Positions 1-28,922 of a DNA stretch of 32,000 nt are shown here, one piece after another (position 1 is the stretch's first letter; every line of letters starts with the position of its first letter). The notes beneath the pieces are model-generated. The model did not search any database, had not been told where the DNA came from, and saw only the letters and a program-made list of their open reading frames with translations. The position numbers and the translations under genes are program-made. Origin of the DNA: Candidatus Saccharimonadota bacterium (GTDB lineage Bacteria; Patescibacteriota; Gracilibacteria; UBA4473); NCBI GenBank assembly GCA_963677105.1, contig OY781871.1:300001-332000 (forward strand), read 5' to 3'.

Positions 1-1179
1 GAATTATTGATTATGGCATCAAAGTCTCTGCGATCAAATGGCGCACGAACATTGTTGTCAATGTTGGGAATTGTGATTGGAGTAGCAACCGTTATTGCGG
101 TAGTTGGAATTGGTGTGGGCGCAAAAAAAGCAATTGAAGCACAGTTTAAAAATTTATCAGTAAACACGCTGATCGTTATGGGATCTGGTGGAAGAGGTGC
201 TAGTACACGGGTTGGGGAAGAAGATGTTCCTTTCGTTTTAGGAAAAGCAGAGTTGATCAAAAAGGGAACAGCAATGGTTTCAGGAAGTTCAACTGTAACG
301 TATGCCAAGGAAGAAGTTTCTGGAACAATAATTGGAGCACAATCAAGTATTTTCGATTTACAAAACTTGGAATTAGAATTTGGTCGATTATTTACAAATG
401 CTGAAGTGAGTTCACGCGCAAATATAGCAGTAATTGGATGGAATATGGCAGAAGAATTGTTTGATGAGATACCAAAAAATGCTGTTGGGAAAACGATAGC
501 AATTGGGTCTCGAAAGATCGAAATAATAGGAGTTTTAAAGGAAAATGGTTCAGGAATGGGAAACCTAAATCCAGATAGTACAATTTATATGCCATATAGT
601 ACTACGCAAGCACGAATACTAGGAAGGAATGCGCGAGTGATGTTAATGTTTCATGCACAAAATCCAGACGTAATTCCGCTCGCACAGGATGAATTAAAAC
701 AATTATTGCGAGAAAATCACCGTTTACGAGATTCTGTAGATGATGATTTTCGAATTATGGATGCAGGATCGATGGTTTCAAGTGCGACAGAATCTACTGA
801 CACAATGTCGTTTTTACTTACTTCAGTAGCAATTATTGTACTTCTGGTTTCAGGAATTGGAATCATGAATGTAATGTTTGTAACTGTTGCAGAACGAACC
901 AAAGAGATTGGAATCATGAAAGCAATTGGTGCACGACAACAAGATATTTTATTACAGTTCTTGTTAGAAGCTATTGTATTATCGATGGTGGGAGGATTAA
1001 TAGGTGTTGTATTGGGATACAGTATCCTACCATTTTTAGGAGATTATGGCGCAACAATTTCAATTAACGGAGGTTTACTCGGATTTGGATTTTCTGTAGT
1101 GGTAGGAATTATCTTTGGATTTGTACCAGCACTTCAAGCGAGTAAATTAGACCCCGTTGATGCACTAAGAAACGAATAG
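1..1179 (+). CDS. ABC transporter permease, MacB/FtsX family (5' end probably cut by window edge)
   Basis: The frame is open from nt 1. It has an N-terminal TM helix (LLSMLGIVIGVATVIAVVGIG), a ~230-aa extracytoplasmic MacB-like core and a C-terminal FtsX-type TM bundle (AERTKEIGIMKAIGARQQDILLQFLLEA). It ends in the canonical KLDPVDALRNE tail. Confidence 0.85.
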   Translation, partial: ELLIMASKSLRSNGARTLLSMLGIVIGVATVIAVVGIGVGAKKAIEAQFKNLSVNTLIVMGSGGRGASTRVGEEDVPFVLGKAELIKKGTAMVSGSSTVTYAKEEVSGTIIGAQSSIFDLQNLELEFGRLFTNAEVSSRANIAVIGWNMAEELFDEIPKNAVGKTIAIGSRKIEIIGVLKENGSGMGNLNPDSTIYMPYSTTQARILGRNARVMLMFHAQNPDVIPLAQDELKQLLRENHRLRDSVDDDFRIMDAGSMVSSATESTDTMSFLLTSVAIIVLLVSGIGIMNVMFVTVAERTKEIGIMKAIGARQQDILLQFLLEAIVLSMVGGLIGVVLGYSILPFLGDYGATISINGGLLGFGFSVVVGIIFGFVPALQASKLDPVDALRNE

Positions 1180-1239
1180 ATTAGTGACTTTAAACCTTGC
1201 TCTCTAAAATGAATAATCTCGATTTCATATATGAATCCT

Positions 1240-1719
1240 TTATAAGCGCTTGTGACTATTTTTAACTTCATTAATTATCCGAAGAAAATCTTCAGGATAA
1301 GAAATTCGACGTAAACAATATTCTCGATTTGCAAATACAAGTCGTACCGTTCCAAAATTAAAAATCCTTCCTAATAAACTTTTAGAGAAAGTTGCCGCTT
1401 CCACCTCTGGTAATATATATTGCTGAGTACTGGTTAAAAAAACACCTTGATGACACATCAGTAAATTATCTTCAAACCAATAATAATTGAACATCCATTG
1501 AATAAATATGTGAAACGTAAGTGCAAACTGCAAAAATAAAATTACAAAAAAGAATTCTTCTTTAGCCGTTAGTGTAGTTATTAAAAAACTTTCTTTCGGG
1601 GAAAAATCAATAAAAATTACTATAAATAGAAAAAATATGTCAGAAATGATCAATAATGAAAGCACCTGTAAAAACAAGGTTACAGGATTTCTATAAATAC
1701 GAATTATTTTTGGTTTCAT
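1240..1719 (-). CDS. Membrane protein with bacterial PH-like (bPH_2/YdbS-like) C-terminal domain
   Basis: Two N-terminal TM helices are followed by a soluble domain (EDNLLMCHQGVFLTSTQQYILPEVEAATFSKSLLGRIFNFGTVRL) that resembles membrane-flanked bPH domains. I prefer the ATG at 1719 over the TTG at 1734. Confidence 0.5.
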   Translation of the reverse strand: MKPKIIRIYRNPVTLFLQVLSLLIISDIFFLFIVIFIDFSPKESFLITTLTAKEEFFFVILFLQFALTFHIFIQWMFNYYWFEDNLLMCHQGVFLTSTQQYILPEVEAATFSKSLLGRIFNFGTVRLVFANREYCLRRISYPEDFLRIINEVKNSHKRL

Positions 1720-1745
1720 ATGAAAATTTCTCAAAAATATATGTT

Positions 1746-1780
1746 CTCCTCCCCCACTAAAAAATTTTGTAAGGGAGGAG
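1746..1780 (-). terminator. GC-rich hairpin between hsp20 and the downstream gene (CTCCTCCC / GGGAGGAG stem, 19-nt loop)
   Basis: A perfect 8-bp inverted repeat (1746-1753 and 1773-1780) begins 13 nt after the hsp20 stop on the minus strand. The following tract is AT-rich but not a clean U-run. Confidence 0.4.
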
Positions 1781-1792
1781 GACTAAAAATAT

Positions 1793-2269
1793 TTATTTAA
1801 TTTTTTTTATCTCAAGTAATTTTTTCTTATTCTGTTTTTTCTTTGGCACTAAAATCGTTAAAACCCCGTGTTTTGAACTACATTCTGCTTTATCAAGATC
1901 AGCAGTTGAAGGGAATTGAACTTTTTGATAAAAACTTGCTGTTGATCGATCACTTCGAAGATATGTTCCTTTTTTATCCTTTTCAGAAGAATCTTTTTTA
2001 CCACTCAGAACTAAAAAATTATTTTCTATTTCAACTGAAACATCTTCTGGATCAAATCCTGGAAGTTCTACCTCAGTAATAAACTGATTCTCCTCTTCTA
2101 TTACATCCATAAGTGGAATCCATTGTGATTGAGTTCCCCAATCTGGTAAAAGAGAATTAGTAAAAAATGGAGACGGTTCCCAAAAATCTCCAAAAAAATT
2201 TCCCAAACTCGCGTCAAAAGGAGCGAGAGAATTTTGAGAAGGCCGATGCCGGACAATTCTGCTACTCAT
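1793..2269 (-). CDS. Small heat-shock protein, Hsp20/alpha-crystallin family
   Basis: It has an alpha-crystallin domain (PLMDVIEEENQFITEVELPGFDPEDVSVEIENNFLVLSGKK ... FYQKVQFPSTADLDKAECSSKHGVLTILVPKK). Start taken at the ATG at 2269 (MSSRIVRH). Confidence 0.9.
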   Translation of the reverse strand: MSSRIVRHRPSQNSLAPFDASLGNFFGDFWEPSPFFTNSLLPDWGTQSQWIPLMDVIEEENQFITEVELPGFDPEDVSVEIENNFLVLSGKKDSSEKDKKGTYLRSDRSTASFYQKVQFPSTADLDKAECSSKHGVLTILVPKKKQNKKKLLEIKKIK

Positions 2270-2295
2270 TATGAATAGGGTTAAGAAATAATAAT

Positions 2296-2322
2296 CTAGC
2301 ACTCTCGATATTAGACTGCTAA
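2296..2322. promoter_or_regulatory. CIRCE-like inverted repeat (HrcA operator) upstream of hsp20
   Basis: The minus strand reads TTAGCAGTC-N9-GAGTGCTAG, against the consensus TTAGCACTC-N9-GAGTGCTAA, with one mismatch per arm. It overlaps the predicted -10 box. Confidence 0.65.
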
Positions 2323-2336
2323 AAGTGAGAAGTCAA
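2308..2336 (-). promoter_or_regulatory. Sigma70-type promoter of hsp20 (TTGACT-N17-TAATAT)
   Basis: The minus strand has TTGACT (2336-2331), a 17-nt spacer and TAATAT (2313-2308), about 40 nt upstream of the ATG. Confidence 0.5.
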
Positions 2337-2443
2337 ATTTTTTCGATAAAACTAAAAAACATTTCTATAAGCTACTTAATCATGAATAATGGTCTCAACT
2401 AGCAGAATAACTTAACTGCAATTATTTTTACCAAAATATATAT

Positions 2444-3004
2444 TTAGCAAAACGGATCATAGGCCCATTGCAGTAAAGCCTGTCTTTGTTTAGGACGACA
2501 ATATAAATTTCCCGGTTCACAGTTTTTTAGTACTTGACCTCGATGTCTCGCAAATGCTCTCCAACGTTTTATTTGTCTTTCATCTAATGATGGATCTCTC
2601 CTCCCCAAATAATATCGACAGTACCACTGAAACCAGCCTCGAACATCTGGATCATTAGGAGTAATCCATCCATTCTCTTGCCATACCTGAAGAGACTGAC
2701 GAGATTTAATTTGAAAATAATTTTTATTTATATCCGATTTTTCTGGAGAAAGCTTATTCATAGCATTTTCAAACCACTCTCGAGGAAATTCAGAAACACA
2801 ATCATTAAGATATTTTCCTTCAAAAACTCCAAGCGCCAACATTTTATCCGGTGAAATGTTTGGCTGAAAATCAGGAGAAAAGTTTTTTCCAACAGGTTCG
2901 CCTAATTGGTATTCATATCCAGACTGCATAGAATCTTCTACGAAAATTGTTTTTCCAGGAGTAAACCAGTTAAGTGATTTTGAATGAGAAATATCTATCA
3001 TCAC
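2444..3004 (-). CDS. Conserved hypothetical protein (GWFQWYCRYYLGRR motif family), function unknown
   Basis: This is a 186-aa uninterrupted ORF with Trp/Cys/Arg-rich motifs that are not low-complexity (WQENGWITPNDPDVRGWFQWYCRYYLGRRDP...RQIKRWRAFARHRGQV...RQALLQWAYDP). I recall similar unnamed proteins in diverse bacteria but cannot name a family. Confidence 0.65.
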   Translation of the reverse strand: MMIDISHSKSLNWFTPGKTIFVEDSMQSGYEYQLGEPVGKNFSPDFQPNISPDKMLALGVFEGKYLNDCVSEFPREWFENAMNKLSPEKSDINKNYFQIKSRQSLQVWQENGWITPNDPDVRGWFQWYCRYYLGRRDPSLDERQIKRWRAFARHRGQVLKNCEPGNLYCRPKQRQALLQWAYDPFC

Positions 3005-3169
3005 TCAACACTTTAAATTATCATCAAAAACTTGACCACATTTTATCTCGGTCATGCTTCAACTTTTCATTTTAAAAACTTACATACTTCAAAAAACTCT
3101 GACATTCAATCGGGTGTCGGAGACTCGAATGGAGGGAGTATAGGTCTGGTATCTTTCTTTTTGACTTAC

Positions 3170-3203
3170 GAAAAGAATCCTGAAATCATCAGGGTTCGAT
3201 TCT
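3170..3203 (-). terminator. Possible terminator after tRNA-Trp
   Basis: The minus strand has AGAAT..CCTGA-tgatt-TCAGG..ATTCT, a compound hairpin, followed by TTTTCG. Confidence 0.4.
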
Positions 3204-3207
3204 TATC

Positions 3208-3281
3208 TGGCAGGCGCGGTAGGAATCGAACCCACGTCAAGGGCTTTGGAGACCCCTGTACTACCATTGTACGACGCGCCT
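3208..3281 (-). tRNA. trnW: tRNA-Trp (anticodon CCA), 3' CCA encoded
   Basis: Manual cloverleaf: acceptor AGGCGCG/CGCGCCT, D stem GTAC/GTAC, anticodon stem GGGGT/GCCCT with loop CTCCAAA, T arm GTGGG-TTCGATT-CCTAC, discriminator G73, then CCA. Confidence 0.93.
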
Positions 3282-3342
3282 GCATCGCTCGGGAACATTT
3301 TTCCCTCTTCGTAAAAACAACGAAGCTCCAAATAGCACGAGA

Positions 3343-3370
3343 ATTGTACAAGCCAAAACGTGAAAATCAA
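3343..3370 (-). promoter_or_regulatory. Promoter for tRNA-Trp (TTGATT-N16-TACAAT)
   Basis: The minus strand has TTGATT (3370-3365), a 16-nt spacer and TACAAT (3348-3343). A ~60-nt leader with two small hairpins precedes the tRNA. Confidence 0.5.
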
Positions 3371-3371
3371 G

Positions 3372-3399
3372 TTGCTTTTCCGGAAACTGTCACTACAAT
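3372..3399 (+). promoter_or_regulatory. Promoter for the metK leader (TTGCTT-N16-TACAAT)
   Basis: TTGCTT (3372-3377), a 16-nt spacer and TACAAT (3394-3399) lie immediately upstream of the riboswitch P1. Confidence 0.55.
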
Positions 3400-3410
3400 C
3401 CTTATGCAAT

Positions 3411-3502
3411 TTTCATTGAGAGGTGGCGAGAGGTACAACTTCACGACCCACCAGCAACCTGCCAACCGAATGGCAAAGGTGCTCCACTTGTACGGGATGA
3501 GG
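3411..3502 (+). promoter_or_regulatory. SAM riboswitch aptamer (SAM-I clan, apparently lacking an internal P4)
   Basis: P1 is TTTCATT/GATGAGG. The core matches the SAM-I consensus: GAGAGGTGG...CCACCAGCAACC...AAGGTGC. P3 is TGCC-aaccgaat-GGCA. The P2-loop GTACAA (3433-3438) is complementary to TTGTAC (3488-3493), the expected pseudoknot. It sits directly upstream of metK. Confidence 0.7.
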
Positions 3503-3511
3503 TTTCATGAA

Positions 3512-3535
3512 GTTGCGCCATTCGTAACTTTTTTT
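3512..3535 (+). terminator. Riboswitch expression-platform terminator
   Basis: The hairpin GTTGCG-ccatt-CGTAAC is followed by T7. The segment GCCATTCG (3517-3524) is perfectly complementary to CGAATGGC (3467-3474) in aptamer P3, which suggests alternative pairing. Confidence 0.5.
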
Positions 3536-3540
3536 AAAAA

Positions 3541-4656
3541 ATGAAAACATTTTTCACTTCGGAATCAGTCACCGCCGGTCATCCAGATAAATTGGCTGAC
3601 CAAATTTCTGACGCTATTTTAGATGAAATTTTAACACAAGATCCAGAAGCTCGTGTTGCTTGTGAAACATTGGTAAATACTGGACTCGTGATTGTCGCAG
3701 GTGAAATTACTACAAATTGCTACGTCGATGTGCAACATATTGCTCGACAAGTAATTTTGGACGTTGGATATGATTCTGCCGATGTTTGTTTTGATGGAAA
3801 AACATGTGCGATCCTCAATGCTATCGAAGAACAATCTCCTGATATTGCACTTGGTGTAAATACTGGTGGAGCTGGCGATCAAGGATTAATGTTCGGATTT
3901 GCGTGTGATGAAACGCCTGAATTAATGCCAATTCCTATTTCTTTGGCACATAAATTATCTACTCAAATCACAAAAGTACGCAAAGATAAAACTCTCTCAT
4001 GGTTGCGTCCTGATGGAAAATCTCAAATCACAATGGAATATAATGACGGTGTTCCTACGCGAATCGAAGCAGTGGTAATTTCAGCTCAACATAATCCGGA
4101 AATTGAATTAGAAAAATTACGAACAGAAATTAAAAAACACGTTATTGATCCTGTTTGTGGAAATTTGATTGATGAAAATACTAAATTTCATATAAATCCA
4201 ACCGGACGATTTGTTATTGGTGGACCACAAGGAGATTGTGGAATGACGGGACGAAAAATTATTGTTGATACATATGGTGGATATGGTCGTCATGGTGGAG
4301 GGGCTTTTAGTGGAAAAGACCCAAGTAAAACTGACCGAAGTGCTGCTTATGCAGCACGTTGGGTTGCAAAAAGTATTGTTGCAGCAGGACTTGCAAAAAA
4401 GTGTGAAGTTCAATTAGCGTACGCAATTGGTATAGCAAAACCTGTTTCTATTTATGTTGATGCATTTGGAACCAGTGAAAAAACTGCAGAACAATTAGAA
4501 AATATTGTACGTAAAAATTTTGATCTCACTCCTGCTGGAATTATTGAAACATTACAACTAAAACGGCCAATATATCGTGATACAGCTGTTTGTGGACACT
4601 TCGGACGCACTGATATTAATTTCCCTTGGGAAAATCCTTTTCCACTGAAAAGTTGA
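3541..4656 (+). CDS. metK: S-adenosylmethionine synthetase
   Basis: [57 protein letters not shown] and [23 protein letters not shown] are all MetK hallmarks. Confidence 0.97.
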
Positions 4657-13605: not shown

Positions 13606-13730
13606 TACTCGATTTGTAGCAAAAAAAACAGAATATAGCAAGGCATTCGTTTCGCTCCTTTTCATATTCCAATTTTGAACTTTGTAGTTTTATCTTTGTG
13701 ATTTGGAGCAACGCGACTTTGTCGTTTGAA

Positions 13731-13757
13731 TAAAAAACCCGCCGATAAATCGACGAG
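13731..13757 (-). terminator. Rho-independent terminator of rnpB
   Basis: The minus strand has CGTCGAT-tt-ATCGGCG followed by GGTTTTTTATT. Confidence 0.6.
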
Positions 13758-13758
13758 T

Positions 13759-14136
13759 TTGCTCTGAATGGAATAAGCCGCGTTCTGTCGAGGATTATCA
13801 TTTCTCTTATCCCGAAAATCACTTTTCGGTGTCATCTGCAGGACCGAAGTAAAACTCAAATGTGGGAACAACACCACTTGTTTTGTTCGGGCCACCTGCA
13901 TCTCCGCCAAAAGGGTTTACCGCCAACTTGCCTTGCGACAAATTGCTCTGCAAGCATCACCTCACAGTCTTTTCACCGGAACTCCGCGAACGGAGGCGTA
14001 TAGTTTCTGTGGCACTTTCCCTCCCTTATCTTCGCAAATAAGGGGATCGGCCGTGAGCCGTTTTTGCTTTGTTCGTGCGGCGCGGACTTTCCTCTCCCTA
14101 CGTGTGCAAGGAGCGATAATCAACCAAAAGAGCAGA
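13759..14136 (-). ncRNA. rnpB: RNase P RNA (bacterial type A); ends approximate
   Basis: The minus strand carries GAGAGGAAAGTCCGCGCC (CR-I, 14096-14079), ACAGAAAC..., GGTAAACCC and ACAGAACGCGGCTTA (13788-13774). The terminal stem is TGCTCT/AGAGCA. The region is locally much more GC-rich than its flanks. Confidence 0.9.
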
Positions 14137-14139
14137 AAG

Positions 14140-14167
14140 AATGTAGCAGTTTTAATAATAATTGCAA
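14140..14167 (-). promoter_or_regulatory. Promoter of rnpB (TTGCAA-N16-TACATT)
   Basis: The minus strand has TTGCAA (14167-14162), a 16-nt spacer and TACATT (14145-14140), a few nt upstream of the P1 5' strand. Confidence 0.5.
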
Positions 14168-14185
14168 AAGCTCTCTCTATCGAGA

Positions 14186-14626
14186 TCAAAATCCTCCCAT
14201 TAGTCCGAAATATAAACCTAACACAAACACAACTAAGCCACAAATAGACATAAAAATAGTTATCACAGAAAGAATCGTTTTTTTATATCCAGCCAGCTTT
14301 GACGTACAAGATTTTAAATTAAGAACAAAAAGAAAAAACATGTACATCATCGTTATTCCCATAAAGAGATAATAAAATTGATGCAAATTTCTAGGTATTT
14401 TTATGTTCTCAAAAAACAAAAGGAGAAGAAGTAAACCATTAAGAATAATAGAGAAACAAATATATTTTTTAAAAATAAAATTAGAGATAAAAATTGGCAA
14501 CAAAAACACAGCTAGAAACAATACATATGGAAAAAGTCCCTTATTAGAAATTACTATGAAAAAGTATGAAAGTAATATAATGGAAGCGAAAAAACACCAC
14601 ATCAGTTTATTTTCTTTAAAACTCAT
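14186..14626 (-). CDS. Hypothetical polytopic membrane protein
   Basis: A 146-aa ORF is unusually long for DNA this AT-rich. It has 4-5 predicted hydrophobic helices and no recognisable family. Confidence 0.4.
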   Translation of the reverse strand: MSFKENKLMWCFFASIILLSYFFIVISNKGLFPYVLFLAVFLLPIFISNFIFKKYICFSIILNGLLLLLLFFENIKIPRNLHQFYYLFMGITMMYMFFLFVLNLKSCTSKLAGYKKTILSVITIFMSICGLVVFVLGLYFGLMGGF

Positions 14627-24512: not shown

Positions 24513-25847
24513 TTAATCAAAATAATGTCTTCTCACTGATTCCGTGTTCGCAAATGGCTGACAAGAATCAATTTCATCGAGTAAAATATTACCAAAAGAA
24601 GTGTGTATACTTTCTCCTAATTTTTCACGCAATACTTCGTTTTTTTCAAAGAAAGAAAATGCTTCCCATAATGTACGAGGCAAAAGCTCTAGGTTTCTCG
24701 ATTGCAATTCCTTTCGGTTTAATGCATATAAATTTTCATCATAAAATCCATCAAATGATAATTCTTTTTTCAATCCATCTAATCCTGTTGCAATAAATCC
24801 TGCAGCCAAAAGATACGGATTCGCCATCGGGTCTGGAAAACGAAATTCTGCACGAATAGCTTTTGACCAAAGTTTGTCATCCGCAACTGCAGGAATACGA
24901 CATAATGCTGAACGATTACAATCTCCCATTGCCACAACACACGGCGCTTCAAATCCTGGGACTAATCGAGCATAAGAAACTTCTGTTGGGTTTGCAATCG
25001 CTGTTAATGAACGAGAATGTAATAAAATTCCTGTTGAAAATTGAAGCGCTTTTTTTGAAAAATTTTTAAATTCCGTTCGTTTCGAATCATAAAATAAATT
25101 ACCTGTTTCATTTCCAACAGAAATATGACAATGCATTCCTGATCCATTTCGTGTTGGATATGGTTTTGGCAGAAACGTTACATCAAATCCGTAATTCCGT
25201 ACTACTTTATGTGAAATTAATTTAAAATACTGGATTCTGTCTGCCGTTCGTTCTGCAACATCAAATCGCCAATTTACTTCAAACTGCTCATCACCAACTT
25301 CCGCATGAGCACGTTCAACTTCAAATCCCATATTTCCAATTACACGAGCAATTTCTGCAATAAGAAAACTTTTAGGATCACGAGGATTAAAATAGTTTGA
25401 ATTTCCTCCATTCGCTGTTCCGACATATTCTTTTTTTTCTATAAAAAAGGCTTCTGGCTCTGCTCCCATCATCATTTGTCCACCATTCCAAACTTTGGCT
25501 AACTCATTTTGTAATTTCTGCAATTGACTTCGCGCACAATTGGAATGTGGTTTTCCTTTTGTATCAATAATGTCACAAATAATCCAAAACTCTGTTTTAT
25601 CAATATCTGCAATCGATTCATCTACTTTCACTAAAGTTCGTGGATCTCCTTTCAAAATCGAATCACTCGAATTTATGTCATTCACTCCTATAAAACTAGA
25701 TCCATCGTAGGCAACTCCTGTTGAACACAGCTCAATAAGCGTTGAAATCGGAAAAATTATTTCTCTCAAACCTCCTGATAAATCTGTTACTAATGCCTTT
25801 AAAATAGCATCTTGTTGTGCTGCGTCTTCAATTGAAAATTCTCCCAT
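24513..25847 (-). CDS. glnA: Glutamine synthetase family protein (type I-like)
   Basis: Catalytic-domain motifs are AHAEVGDEQFEVNWRF, KPYPTRNGSGMHCHISV and NRSALCRIP. Start taken at the ATG at 25847 (MGEFSIED). Confidence 0.88.
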   Translation of the reverse strand: MGEFSIEDAAQQDAILKALVTDLSGGLREIIFPISTLIELCSTGVAYDGSSFIGVNDINSSDSILKGDPRTLVKVDESIADIDKTEFWIICDIIDTKGKPHSNCARSQLQKLQNELAKVWNGGQMMMGAEPEAFFIEKKEYVGTANGGNSNYFNPRDPKSFLIAEIARVIGNMGFEVERAHAEVGDEQFEVNWRFDVAERTADRIQYFKLISHKVVRNYGFDVTFLPKPYPTRNGSGMHCHISVGNETGNLFYDSKRTEFKNFSKKALQFSTGILLHSRSLTAIANPTEVSYARLVPGFEAPCVVAMGDCNRSALCRIPAVADDKLWSKAIRAEFRFPDPMANPYLLAAGFIATGLDGLKKELSFDGFYDENLYALNRKELQSRNLELLPRTLWEAFSFFEKNEVLREKLGESIHTSFGNILLDEIDSCQPFANTESVRRHYFD

Positions 25848-26013
25848 AAATGAAATAAAGATTAAAAATACGTGCAAAGTTTGGAATCATTTTCTGTCTT
25901 CGTCGAGAGAAATTTTTGGTGAAAAATAGTCTGTTAAAAAAAATTTCATACTTGATTTTTGTTTAGAAATACATAGCTTTTAATTGCTGTAGAAAAAAAT
26001 TACAACTTGCAAA

Positions 26014-26751
26014 ATGAATGAAAAAGTATTGAAACATCTTACGGACGTCGGACTTTCAGAAAAGGAGGCTTTAATTTATTTATCTACACTTGAATGTGGA
26101 ACAAGTCTCGTTTCAGTAATCGCCTCTTCTGCAAAATTTAATCGAATTACAACCTACACAATATTAGAAAAACTTCTCATACGGGGTCTCGTTACAACGT
26201 CTATTCGTGATGGAGCAAAACATTTTACTGCTGTTTCTCCAGAAATTTTTTCAGAAAGTATTCGCCAACGAGCCAAACGATTAGAAAAATCTGTTCCTCA
26301 TCTTCTCGCTCTTGCCGGGGACAACAACGCTCGTCCTATTGTACAAATGTTTGAAGGATTAACAGGCGTAAAACGAGCTTATAAAGAGACATTTCAGTCG
26401 TCTGGAGAAATACTTAATTTTGCAAACTCAAAAGGTCTCCGCGAAAACTGGCCGGAATACGACATAGAATATGTAGCCGAACGTGCACGAAGAAAAATAT
26501 TTCTTAGAGGAATAGCTCCCGATGACAAACCAGGAAAATTAGTACAAAATGAAAATGAAAAATTTTATCGAGAAATACGCTTACTTCCACAAAAGAAATT
26601 CGAAGTCGAGAATGAAATTAATATTTTCGATGACAAGCTTCTCATTACATCATTCGAACCAAAAGTATTTGCGATTTTAATTCAATCACAAGCAGTCGCT
26701 GACACTCAACGACAAATATTTGAAATGATGTGGAAATTTTGTGAGAAGTAG
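26014..26751 (+). CDS. TrmB-family transcriptional regulator
   Basis: The N-terminal winged HTH is LTDVGLSEKEALIYLSTLECGTSLVSVIASSAKFNRITTYTILEKLLIRGLV. The C-terminal domain has TrmB-like length. It is divergent from the glnA-like gene. Confidence 0.8.
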   Translation: MNEKVLKHLTDVGLSEKEALIYLSTLECGTSLVSVIASSAKFNRITTYTILEKLLIRGLVTTSIRDGAKHFTAVSPEIFSESIRQRAKRLEKSVPHLLALAGDNNARPIVQMFEGLTGVKRAYKETFQSSGEILNFANSKGLRENWPEYDIEYVAERARRKIFLRGIAPDDKPGKLVQNENEKFYREIRLLPQKKFEVENEINIFDDKLLITSFEPKVFAILIQSQAVADTQRQIFEMMWKFCEK

Positions 26752-26781
26752 AGAATGTTTTATAAATAGTACTTGACGATC

Positions 26782-26802
26782 GGGGCATCCTACTACCGCC
26801 CC
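26782..26802. terminator. GC hairpin between convergent genes (GGGGC-N11-GCCCC)
   Basis: This is the only GC-rich element in the 70-bp gap between the TrmB-like gene and the 201-aa ORF. There is no clear U-tract on either strand. Confidence 0.3.
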
Positions 26803-26820
26803 TTAAAAAACTTCAGTAAA

Positions 26821-27426
26821 TTATTCTTTTGGTAACAGGATTGACCACTTTATTCCTTCAAAAACATTCAGCCTTTGAAGAAAATCAATAACTTCTTCTT
26901 GTATTATAACTTCTTTATGATTCTCTATAATTATTGAGTAATCCTTGTTGTTTCTTTTATCTAAACCAACCTGTATGTTTTCATGCCCTTTGAGATCTTG
27001 AAAATATATTTCCAAAATGTCTCTCATGAATTCATAGAAAAGGTCTCCTTGTTGAATTTTTGAAATTTGTTTTTGAGTAATGAAATGGAGAAAAAACCCA
27101 ACCTTTTCATTTAAACAAACATCTAATATTGATTCTTTCTTATCCTGACACATGCTTATCATATGGAAACGCTGCAAGAAAAACTCAAGTTCTTCTATAT
27201 CAATATGTGCTTTAATGTTAAGTATTATTCCATAGTAGTCGTTCACACAAATTCGTTTTTTGTATTTACCGGACAATTCGAATTTTACTTTTTCATTCGA
27301 TATATACTGAAAATATATGTTCAGTAATTTAGTTACAAAGGTTAACGGTTTTAAAAATTCCCTTTCTGTGTCTTCTTGGACACGAAATATCGATGCAATT
27401 CTTTTTCTGTATTCCCATTTGTTCAT
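26821..27426 (-). CDS. Hypothetical protein (201 aa), last gene of orphan operon
   Basis: It is a long ORF in AT-rich DNA. A strong SD (GAGGGAGGAATA-ATG) sits inside the upstream gene, and a TAATG stop/start overlap couples it to that gene. I recognise no family. Confidence 0.6.
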   Translation of the reverse strand: MNKWEYRKRIASIFRVQEDTEREFLKPLTFVTKLLNIYFQYISNEKVKFELSGKYKKRICVNDYYGIILNIKAHIDIEELEFFLQRFHMISMCQDKKESILDVCLNEKVGFFLHFITQKQISKIQQGDLFYEFMRDILEIYFQDLKGHENIQVGLDKRNNKDYSIIIENHKEVIIQEEVIDFLQRLNVFEGIKWSILLPKE

Positions 27427-27800
27427 TATTCCTCCCTCAACATTTCCATTTCACAATTGTGTTCTTTTAAAAGTGTTCCCATTTCTCTTTCATCAAAATC
27501 AATAACATTGATTTCTTTTAACGAAAGTACCGCAACATTTCTAATGACATCATTAATCAAATCTATGACCTTTGTTATCTCCTCAAAATTTCCTGTAAGG
27601 ACAAGTTGAGTTCCATCCTCTTTTACATTAACTTGATTTTCAAACATCTTCTTCAACACTGCATTTCCATTTCTGTGAGAAATAGTTATAGATTGTTCTC
27701 CTTTTAATTTTTTTGATTTCACTAAATACAAAAAAATTTTATAGGGATCACCATTTTCTCTTCCTTTCTGAATCTTTACTTTTGTTACTTTTTTTCCCAT
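27426..27800 (-). CDS. Hypothetical protein (124 aa), orphan operon
   Basis: Start taken at ATG 27800 (MGKKVTKVKIQ), preceded by AAAGGAGGAAGA. I recognise no family. Confidence 0.6.
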   Translation of the reverse strand: MGKKVTKVKIQKGRENGDPYKIFLYLVKSKKLKGEQSITISHRNGNAVLKKMFENQVNVKEDGTQLVLTGNFEEITKVIDLINDVIRNVAVLSLKEINVIDFDEREMGTLLKEHNCEMEMLREE

Positions 27801-27866
27801 TCTTCCTCCTTTTTCATTGAAGTAATCGGGGACAACTAAATGTCCCCACAAGTGTACAAGTTCTAA

Positions 27867-28028
27867 CTAGTGATTAATCCACCAGTTATCAATTGCTTTT
27901 TCTCTTCTTTTTTCTCTTTTTTCTTCTTCACAGTCTGGACAAAATCTTCCATTGTAGTGCCCATGTTTTCTACACCACTTTTACTGATCAATTAATTGTG
28001 CTTGTTCTTTTTTTTGAATTCGACTCAC
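27867..28028 (-). other. SD-led mini-ORF (15 codons) + in-frame TAA + 37-codon Zn-ribbon-like frame
   Basis: The minus strand reads AAGGAGGGTATT-GTG, then SRIQKKEQAQLIDQ-TAA, then KWCRKHGHYNGRFCPDCEEEKREKRREKAIDNWWINH-TAG, all in one frame. There is no ATG, GTG or TTG in that frame after the TAA. Confidence 0.3.
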
Positions 28029-28110
28029 AATACCCTCCTTTCTTAAAACTCATTAAAGCAACTTTTTCAGTTTGATTTTGAATTTAAAGCAGAAATAACC
28101 CTTTATGTTG

Positions 28111-28139
28111 AAAAAATTCGGGAATACAAAAGTATTCCC
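28111..28139 (-). terminator. Rho-independent terminator/attenuator after the 97-aa gene
   Basis: The minus strand has GGGAATAC-tttt-GTATTCCC, a perfect 8-bp stem, followed by GAATTTTTT. The hairpin starts about 10 nt after the stop. Confidence 0.6.
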
Positions 28140-28148
28140 TAACTACAC

Positions 28149-28442
28149 TTATGACATTAATACTTTGACAATTAACATGTTTCTTTTCTCCGAATCCATA
28201 TGAAATTCGGCCTTGATGTTCATTCTTTCTAAAACCTTAGTTATATCCTGTTCACATTCTTTCATAGTATGTGAACAACAACGAACCCATATTTTACTAT
28301 CATACTCTTCAACGACGAAGTTGCCTTTGTTGTACCCAGGCATTCCAAAATAAAACATCAAACGCAAGACCTCTAAAACAAATTCAACTAATTTCTTTCC
28401 CCCTAACTCCTTGATCTCATTTCCTGTGACGATAATTTTCAT
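28149..28442 (-). CDS. Hypothetical protein (97 aa), first gene of orphan operon
   Basis: The ORF is preceded by an SD (ATAGGAGAAATTAT-ATG) and followed by a strong terminator. I recognise no family. Confidence 0.55.
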   Translation of the reverse strand: MKIIVTGNEIKELGGKKLVEFVLEVLRLMFYFGMPGYNKGNFVVEEYDSKIWVRCCSHTMKECEQDITKVLERMNIKAEFHMDSEKRNMLIVKVLMS

Positions 28443-28630
28443 AATTTCTCCTATTTTTTTTTATTTATCATAATTTCCCTTTTAAAAAAGGGCGCCTCTT
28501 TCCCAAACATAGAAAGACTAAATCTCCAATCTCACCATGATTGGAAAAGAAGCTTATTTATAAACATTCTCCGACTTCTCAAAGATCAGATTTTCTGAAT
28601 TTTTTTCAAAAGAACAGAAAATACTGTGGT

Positions 28631-28659
28631 CTTTTACATCAAATTAATTAATTCGTCAA
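28631..28659 (-). promoter_or_regulatory. Weak candidate promoter for the orphan operon (TTGACG-N17-TAAAAG)
   Basis: On the minus strand, the -35 is good and the -10 is poor. It would give a ~190-nt leader containing several small hairpins. Confidence 0.25.
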
Positions 28660-28675
28660 TGCATTGTGAATTACT

Positions 28676-28700
28676 AAAAAAACCCTGAAAATAATTTCAG
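28676..28700 (-). terminator. Terminator after the 63-aa ORF
   Basis: The minus strand has CTGAAA-ttat-TTTCAG followed by GGTTTTTTT. The stem is short and AU-rich. Confidence 0.45.
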
Positions 28701-28730
28701 AGCTCTTTATTATTGTGCTTTTTTCTGCAC

Positions 28731-28922
28731 TTAATCTTTCTTTTTATCGAGAACAAGAGCAACTCCTCCTGCTGCTGTTTCCTTAATTTTATTGCTTTTC
28801 TCACAGAATACTTCTGTTGGAATATCTGGATTTCCTAAATCTTCTATTAATTGTTTTCCTTCTTCTGTAAGCGTTCCTACTCCTTCACCTGTTAATGATG
28901 GTTGTTTATCTAAACCTGACAT
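28731..28922 (-). CDS. Hypothetical small protein (63 aa)
   Basis: Support is the ORF and a downstream terminator only. It has no SD and no recognisable family. Confidence 0.3.
   Translation of the reverse strand: MSGLDKQPSLTGEGVGTLTEEGKQLIEDLGNPDIPTEVFCEKSNKIKETAAGGVALVLDKKKD

Follow-up and report, generated by a model that had tools for sequence, protein, structure and literature searches.

A cluster of Shine-Dalgarno-led orphan genes beside a conserved glnA-trmB pair

Genes of the orphan block

We analysed a 32-kb stretch of contig OY781871.1 (positions 300,001 to 332,000; referred to as the window and numbered from its first letter), in which a block of minus-strand open reading frames (ORFs) at 26760-28710 had been singled out from the letters alone. 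This sequence-only reading took the block for a single operon of four ORFs of no recognisable family, each led by a Shine-Dalgarno (SD) motif, GGAG(G), in a window whose conserved genes start without one. The ORFs of 97, 124 and 201 aa and the TAATG coupling of the last two are all present, and the three genes are called p97, p124 and p201 here.

28149..28442, minus strand: p97, a 97-aa orphan ORF (ORFan); its SD, AGGAG with a 5-nt spacer, is weaker than the other sites
27867..28028, minus strand: interrupted small ORF, consisting of SD AAGGAGGG, GTG, 15 codons, TAA, 37 codons and TAG
27805..27811, minus strand: SD of p124, AAGGAGG, with GGAGG core 27809-27805 and 4-nt spacer AAGA
27426..27800, minus strand: p124, a 124-aa ORFan translationally coupled to p201
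27431..27438, minus strand: SD of p201, GAGGGAGG, with GGAGG core 27435-27431 and 4-nt spacer AATA, within the last p124 codons
26821..27426, minus strand: p201, a 201-aa ORFan with two diverged tandem copies of a ~60-90-aa domain

The p124 stop and the p201 ATG overlap as TAATG, with nucleotide 27426 common to both, and the two genes carry an identical GGAGGAA-N2-ATG signal with equal spacing. The small ORF at 28028-27867 had been read as open, but an in-frame TAA at 27983-27981 interrupts it only 15 codons after the SD-led GTG. Beyond this TAA the frame reads KWCRKHGHYNGRFCPDCEEEKREKRREKAIDNWWINH up to its stop, with a zinc-ribbon-like C-x2-H...C-x2-C pattern. Shortening or lengthening the A8 run by one base leaves the frame closed, and the small ORF therefore looks nonsense-inactivated. 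With the TAA replaced, it has no match in Pfam or NCBIfam. Judging from its residue pattern, 27867..28028 is probably a nonsense-inactivated gene for a zinc-ribbon-like protein of ~53 aa.

ORFs as long as the three intact ones (201, 124-141 and 97 codons) each have P <= 0.0005 in shuffles of the AT-rich block. The N-terminal and C-terminal halves of p201 are related to each other (Smith-Waterman z 5.2; hhalign 78%, E 1.8e-5), and this internal tandem duplication argues that p201 is an evolved protein. By eye, p97, p124 and the two halves of p201 had been suspected to be paralogues, but hhalign and Smith-Waterman relate only the two halves of p201. The sequence-only reading had looked to relatives for conservation of the ORFs, and here the ORFs fail, as no orthologue was found. 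Their coding status is instead argued from ORF length, the combination of SD and start, translational coupling and the p201 duplication.

Searched against 5.8 billion clusters (word-indexed search), p97, p124 and p201 match only themselves, and for p201 the outcome was the same when all of 1.84 billion representatives were searched with HMMER. Each block protein is a singleton known from one contig, and exact-sequence look-ups of contigs gave no record. None of the four ORFs scored above threshold in Pfam, PHROGs, PADLOC or NCBIfam. PADLOC returned 0 matches and Pfam and NCBIfam only sub-threshold noise, hence no known toxin, antitoxin or defence family; the best PHROGs matches had E >= 0.02, and tblastn against phages gave none below E 0.1. 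No homologue of the block proteins was found by tblastn against plasmids or in scans of IMG/VR, where two candidate loci for p124 proved to share a chance 8-mer, GNFEEITK, inside a 946-aa phage protein.

The single-sequence AlphaFold2 (AF2) model of p124 has a predicted local distance difference test score (pLDDT) of 73 and a predicted template modelling score (pTM) of 0.65, and shows a generic beta-alpha-beta ferredoxin-like sandwich. Its best PDB match is a designed ferredoxin with a template modelling (TM) score of 0.45, its TM score is below 0.5 to everything, and a BFVD fold search gave no match. The AF2 model of p201 is poor and unreliable, and a fold search with this model (pLDDT 52) gave no match either. 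No toxin-like fold is seen in the models. HMMER, family and fold searches thus leave the ORFs outside any recognisable family, as the sequence-only reading had put it; p97, p124 and p201 look like small soluble cytoplasmic proteins without a detectable family.

Translation signals, composition and setting

Every non-shadow ORF in the window was listed with the sequence 5' of its candidate starts, and the anti-SD pairing energy was computed. On the minus strand of 26760-28710 there are exactly three GGAGG sites (27431, 27805 and 28034), which lie 4-5 nt upstream of the ATG of p201, the ATG of p124 and the GTG of the broken ORF. An SD-type motif 4-9 nt upstream of the start is found at p201, p124, p97 and the broken ORF, and each of the four claimed GGAG(G) motifs is indeed present, 4-5 nt from its start. 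Pairing to the canonical anti-SD ACCUCCUUA, a tail that may not be the host's, amounts to -11.4 kcal/mol for p201, -11.6 kcal/mol for p124 and -7.3 kcal/mol for p97.

The conserved genes of the window (ribosomal proteins, metK, tyrS, glnA, trmB, aroK/B and others) are preceded by leaders rich in A/T and poor in G, and most of them pair more weakly than -4 kcal/mol. All three GGAGG sites of the block precede a gene start, compared with 0 of 49 elsewhere in the window (Fisher p = 4.5e-5). Among 123 ORFs in the window and three related loci (~90 kb), only p97, p124 and p201 have an SD-led first start, and these three make up 6% of the 51 ORFs in the window. The other hypothetical genes of the window are without an SD. 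The contrast drawn from the letters alone therefore holds: conserved starts have A/T-rich leaders, and no such site is found at any of ~45 other genes in the window or at any of ~70 ORFs in the three related genomes. Since many conserved genes in the window end in TGA, the genome uses the standard code.

A GGAGGAG near 1748, considered as the SD of a gene for a bPH_2 membrane protein, is the 3' arm of the terminator hairpin CTCCTCCC...GGGGGAGGAG after hsp20. This hairpin (window 1740-1790, minus strand) has a T-rich tail and, 13 nt ahead of a TTG, could pass for a strong SD; a likelier start for the bPH_2 gene is the ATG at 1719, which has no SD.

GlnA has its nearest relatives in metagenome-assembled genomes, two of them labelled Candidatus Peribacteria (85% and 65% identical) and one Gracilibacteria (80%), and by its sequences the genome is placed in the Peribacteria/Peregrinibacteria group of the candidate phyla radiation (CPR). 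The 962-kb source contig is of a size usual for CPR bacteria. Candidatus Peribacter riflensis has 7% SD-led genes and is listed among organisms without a conserved CCUCC (PMC10783764 Table 4). The 16S tails given for this group are GAACACTTCCTTA in three Peribacteria, GAACATTCCCTTA in a 33%-GC Peregrinibacterium and GATTACCTCTTTT in another (PMC10783764 S4); Peregrinibacteria tails are given as ACUUCCUUA, AUUCCCUUA and ACCUCUUUU, with a mutated anti-SD, CUUCC (PMC10783764). The ribosomal protein bS21 is often missing from Peregrinibacteria, Gracilibacteria and Absconditabacteria (PMC9297842).

No 16S gene lies within the window. Pairing to the published tails ACUUCCUUA and AUUCCCUUA, which are those of relatives and may not be the host's, is -9.8 and -9.7 kcal/mol for p201, -8.9 and -4.8 kcal/mol for p124, and -4.8 and -3.9 kcal/mol for p97. 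If the host has a tail of the Peribacteria type, ACUUCCUUA, one G-U wobble would still allow GGAGG to pair with it. Because this lineage has already been published as SD-scarce (PMC10783764 Table 4, S4), the SD-free background is a known trait and not a discovery. What is still notable is that the SD-led genes are adjacent to one another and are all orphans.

The block also differs from the rest of the window in composition. We compared the 1786 bp between the arms of an inverted repeat (listed below) with 134 window segments of the same size. The block has the lowest GC of the 134 segments (0.313 versus 0.363 +/- 0.018), the highest dinucleotide delta* (133.8 versus 63.9 +/- 18.7) and the highest tetranucleotide distance (0.336 versus 0.225 +/- 0.020). 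The sequence-only reading had judged the block by eye to be more AT-rich than its neighbours; GC, dinucleotides and tetranucleotides are all window extremes. Codon usage was scored with a synonymous-codon likelihood trained on 28 conserved genes, with amino-acid content controlled. p97 (z -5.1) and p201 (z -3.8) lie below every conserved gene, and the other Pfam-less ORFs of the window range from -2.8 to +0.3. GC at third codon positions in p97 is 0.40, compared with 0.22 +/- 0.04 in the host. A second low-GC stretch (~30%) is found at window 1000-2500 and holds hsp20 and the bPH_2 membrane-protein gene; a bPH_2 gene also adjoins trmB in one of the related loci, L002.

The divergent glnA-trmB pair is kept in the window and in three related loci, L001, L002 and L003 (4 of 4 genomes).

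Window, 24513-26751: glnA-trmB pair
L001, 9127-11365: glnA-trmB pair
L002, 9117-11356: glnA-trmB pair
L003, 3350-5596: glnA-trmB pair

Past the trmB 3' end, L001 has tRNA-Gln, a methyltransferase gene and alaS, L002 has a bPH_2 membrane protein and an efflux system, and L003 has a DUF389 gene; in the window there follow the orphan block, a 63-aa ORF (p63) and then shikimate genes. The block is thus absent at the trmB site in all three relatives, where unrelated DNA is found, and since the DNA beyond trmB is different in every genome, the block sits at a synteny breakpoint. The sequence-only reading had asked whether the trmB-aroK junction is empty elsewhere, but the junction itself is not present in L001, L002 or L003, and a metagenome scan with AroK for closer relatives gave only a 34%-identical locus. 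The conserved divergent pair, kept while everything past trmB differs, suggests that TrmB may regulate glnA in this lineage. No second trmB remnant, considered as a candidate, was found 5' of p97.

p63 (28731-28922, minus strand) lies between the block and aroK, just outside the block. It lacks an SD and a family match, its codon usage is strongly host-like (z +2.4), and clustering at 90% leaves it a singleton; it could be a real small protein of the host.

The remaining features of the block and its edges are as follows.

26742..26768, plus strand: left arm of the inverted repeat; the trmB stop and the codons just before it make up its first 10 nt
26782..26802, strand not applicable: GC-clamped hairpin GGGGC...GCCCC between convergent trmB and p201, read from the sequence
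27828..27847, minus strand: hairpin GGGGACA-TTTAGT-TGTCCCC between the broken ORF and p124, read from the sequence
28120..28139, minus strand: intrinsic-terminator-like hairpin 3' of p97, with an 8-bp stem followed by a T-run
28451..28471, minus strand: six-codon upstream mini-ORF MINKKK, read from the sequence, whose TAG stop overlaps the p97 SD (TAGGAG)
28555..28581, minus strand: right arm of the inverted repeat, 113 nt upstream of the p97 start
28676-28700, strand not given: hairpin

Hairpins had been proposed to bound the block, and they are present at ~26782-26802, 28120-28139 and 28676-28700. The proposal of a single operon fails, since the terminator-like hairpins after p97 (28139-28120) and after the broken ORF (27847-27828) divide the block and leave p124/p201 as the only coupled pair. 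Most likely there are at least two or three transcription units, with p97 alone and p124 and p201 coupled. The hairpins at 26782-26802, 27828-27847 and 28120-28139 follow one design (GGG(G) clamp, AT-rich loop, CCC(C) clamp, GA), and a T-run follows only that at 28120-28139; terminators and a small repeat family are both possible. Considered by eye as integron attC sites, the hairpins are plain 7-8-bp GC-clamped stems and not attC-like, and no Rfam element was found in the intergenic regions. The MINKKK mini-ORF could be a leader peptide or serve translational coupling; a short direct repeat is seen in the contexts AGGGAAATTATG and AGGAGAAATTATG.

Elsewhere in the window, a bacterial RNase P RNA of class A lies at 13765-14126 (minus strand, 115 bits), and the ORFs listed on both strands at 13662-14247 are therefore spurious. 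A 170-aa ORF at 3032-3544 (plus strand) overlaps tRNA-Trp 3208-3281 (minus) on the opposite strand, has no family match and is probably not a gene.

Origin of the block

On balance, we consider it somewhat probable that the block is a small accessory islet, acquired horizontally and by now in partial decay, in which the SD signals of the donor persist. The islet, of ~1.8 kb at ~26.77-28.55 kb, would be specific to a species or strain within a Peribacteria/Peregrinibacteria genome. Its donor would have used SDs, and it would have entered the genome just downstream of the glnA-trmB pair, which is conserved; it holds three intact protein genes and one nonsense-interrupted zinc-ribbon gene. The GGAGG sites would then be donor-type ribosome-binding sites, retained in a host that rarely uses them. 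We draw this interpretation from the SD contrast, the unusual composition, the codons of p97 and p201, the lack of homologues, the break in synteny and the broken gene; the last of these suggests weak selection on the islet and its partial decay. From these features we infer the foreign origin and the SD-using donor, whereas any present-day use of the SDs would follow from the pairing energies with the alternative tails.

The idea of DNA from an SD-using lineage had already been put forward by the sequence-only reading. Composition, the codons of p97 and p201, the synteny break and the ORFan status speak for it, but no donor or mobility gene does. The more specific suggestion of a phage, plasmid or defence-type cassette is unsupported, since no homologue of that kind, integrase, tRNA or target-site duplication was found. 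The other suggestion of the sequence-only reading, a specially translated module, is possible as well.

Several observations weigh against acquisition. No integrase, transposase, tRNA or direct repeat was found at the block, and no donor or homologue of any kind in protein databases, phages, plasmids or viral contigs. The synonymous codon z of p124 (-1.0) is within the host range, so that the deviation in codon usage for which the sequence-only reading proposed to look is seen in p97 and p201 and not in p124. Low GC extends outside the block to ~29.2 kb, where the compositional edge is not sharp, and the inverted repeat is only marginally above chance. The relatives are distant (GlnA 85%, 80% and 65%), and the absence of the block from them therefore tells little about how recently it arrived. 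Finally, a lineage with 7% SD-led genes would give ~3 such genes per 50 anyway, though not necessarily clustered.

This last point leads to a reading that we consider possible but rather unlikely, in which the genes are native, fast-evolving and lineage-specific members of the ~7% SD-led minority and the SD marks a distinct, possibly high or conditional, translation channel. A parallel would be rpsU and the few other SD-led genes of Bacteroidota. The SD-led share in the window (3/51, 6%) is close to the published frequency and matches the 7% of Peribacter riflensis, but the other hypothetical genes of the window have no SD. p124 has host-like codons, whereas the synonymous usage of p97 and p201 is clearly non-host, and in composition no other part of the window is as extreme as the block. 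The GGAGGAA motif and spacing common to p124 and p201 suggest a signal that is maintained, yet none of the genes was found to be conserved in any relative. GGAGG pairs with the CUUCC tail at -9 to -10 kcal/mol (a published tail, which may not be the host's), and the frequent lack of bS21 in the clade (PMC9297842) also favours native genes.

A related proposal strikes us as doubtful. In Peregrinibacteria, with their CUUCC anti-SD and often missing bS21, residual SD pairing would be kept as a dedicated channel for a few accessory or newly acquired genes, and GGAGGAA-N2-ATG would be functional and selected in the host instead of a donor leftover. GGAGG would then pair by a G-U wobble, and GGAAG by Watson-Crick bases.

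The inverted repeat 26742-26768 / 28555-28581 raises the question of a mobile element. Its arms agree at 25 of 26 aligned positions once two 1-nt gaps are allowed; it ranks first in the repeat search, and the window has no second pair of this kind. A non-autonomous mobile or invertible cassette, bounded by these 27-nt inverted repeats and moved or flipped by a recombinase encoded elsewhere, would explain why the repeat brackets exactly the SD-led genes and why the host-like p63 lies just outside it. We nevertheless regard such a cassette as improbable. A whole-region null is inflated by local hairpins, and under a null for distant inverted repeats P is ~0.015 (6/400 and 3/200 shuffles), or ~0.015-0.02 at the region level. 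Among 91 control pairs from real sequence, 2 reach the score of the repeat, and together with this P value they leave it only suggestive. The outer 8-10 nt of the repeat belong to conserved codons at the trmB 3' end. No target-site duplication is seen at the repeat, no recombinase or transposase domain in the block proteins, and no further copy in the window, related loci or viral contigs, so that the block lacks these marks of an insertion sequence or miniature inverted-repeat transposable element.

Equally improbable to us is an artefact or junk, that is, a chimeric assembly insert or decaying DNA with ORFs no longer expressed. In its favour, the proteins are singletons on one contig, one ORF is broken, and p97 and p201 use codons almost at random when judged by the host. 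Against it, three long ORFs with SD, start, terminator and TAATG coupling are improbable by chance (P <= 0.0005), the internal duplication of p201 indicates an evolved protein, and the block is embedded between host genes in a 962-kb contig.

Comparison with known systems

p124 and p201 are small, adjacent and TAATG-coupled, as are the genes of two-gene toxin-antitoxin and defence modules. Unlike these, they have no PADLOC, Pfam, NCBIfam or PHROG match and no toxin-like fold, and coupling alone is not diagnostic. In Flavobacteriia, an SD-led rpsU, encoding bS21, is autoregulated according to Jha et al. (2021) and McNutt et al. (2023), as cited in PMC10783764. That case shares with ours a rare strong SD in a genome otherwise without SD use, where the SD could be a special translational signal. 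The block genes, in contrast, are non-ribosomal and unconserved, and bS21 is often missing in the clade (PMC9297842).

The acquired islet that we favour has its closest counterparts in horizontally acquired ORFan islets at synteny breakpoints. It has in common with them low GC, deviant oligonucleotides, atypical codons in p97 and p201 though not in p124, a lack of homologues, a position adjoining a conserved pair and a pseudogenised member; it differs in being without an integrase, a tRNA, direct repeats, mobile-element genes and an identifiable donor. An ORFan islet of probable foreign origin in an SD-scarce lineage is of a kind already known, and no new mechanism is shown; the islet is a curiosity and not a new kind of system.

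It would gain wider interest in either of two ways. If the SDs are donor relics, the islet would be a clean small example of foreign DNA that retains its own translation signals in an SD-scarce CPR genome, and the presence of an SD would be a cheap marker of recent acquisitions in such lineages. If they are functional in the host, a mutated anti-SD would still support selective SD-dependent translation, which bears on initiation in CPR bacteria with reduced ribosomes.

Lineages that are poor in SDs and have a degenerate or unused anti-SD were reportedly treated by Amin et al. in 2018. The window and its relatives resemble the SD-scarce lineages (Bacteroidota; Peribacter riflensis, PMC10783764 Table 4/S4) in the SD-free, A/T-rich leaders of their core genes and in the SD-led share, ~6% here versus 7%. 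They differ in that the published work gives genome-wide percentages, whereas here the SD-led genes are clustered in a compositionally foreign ORFan islet.

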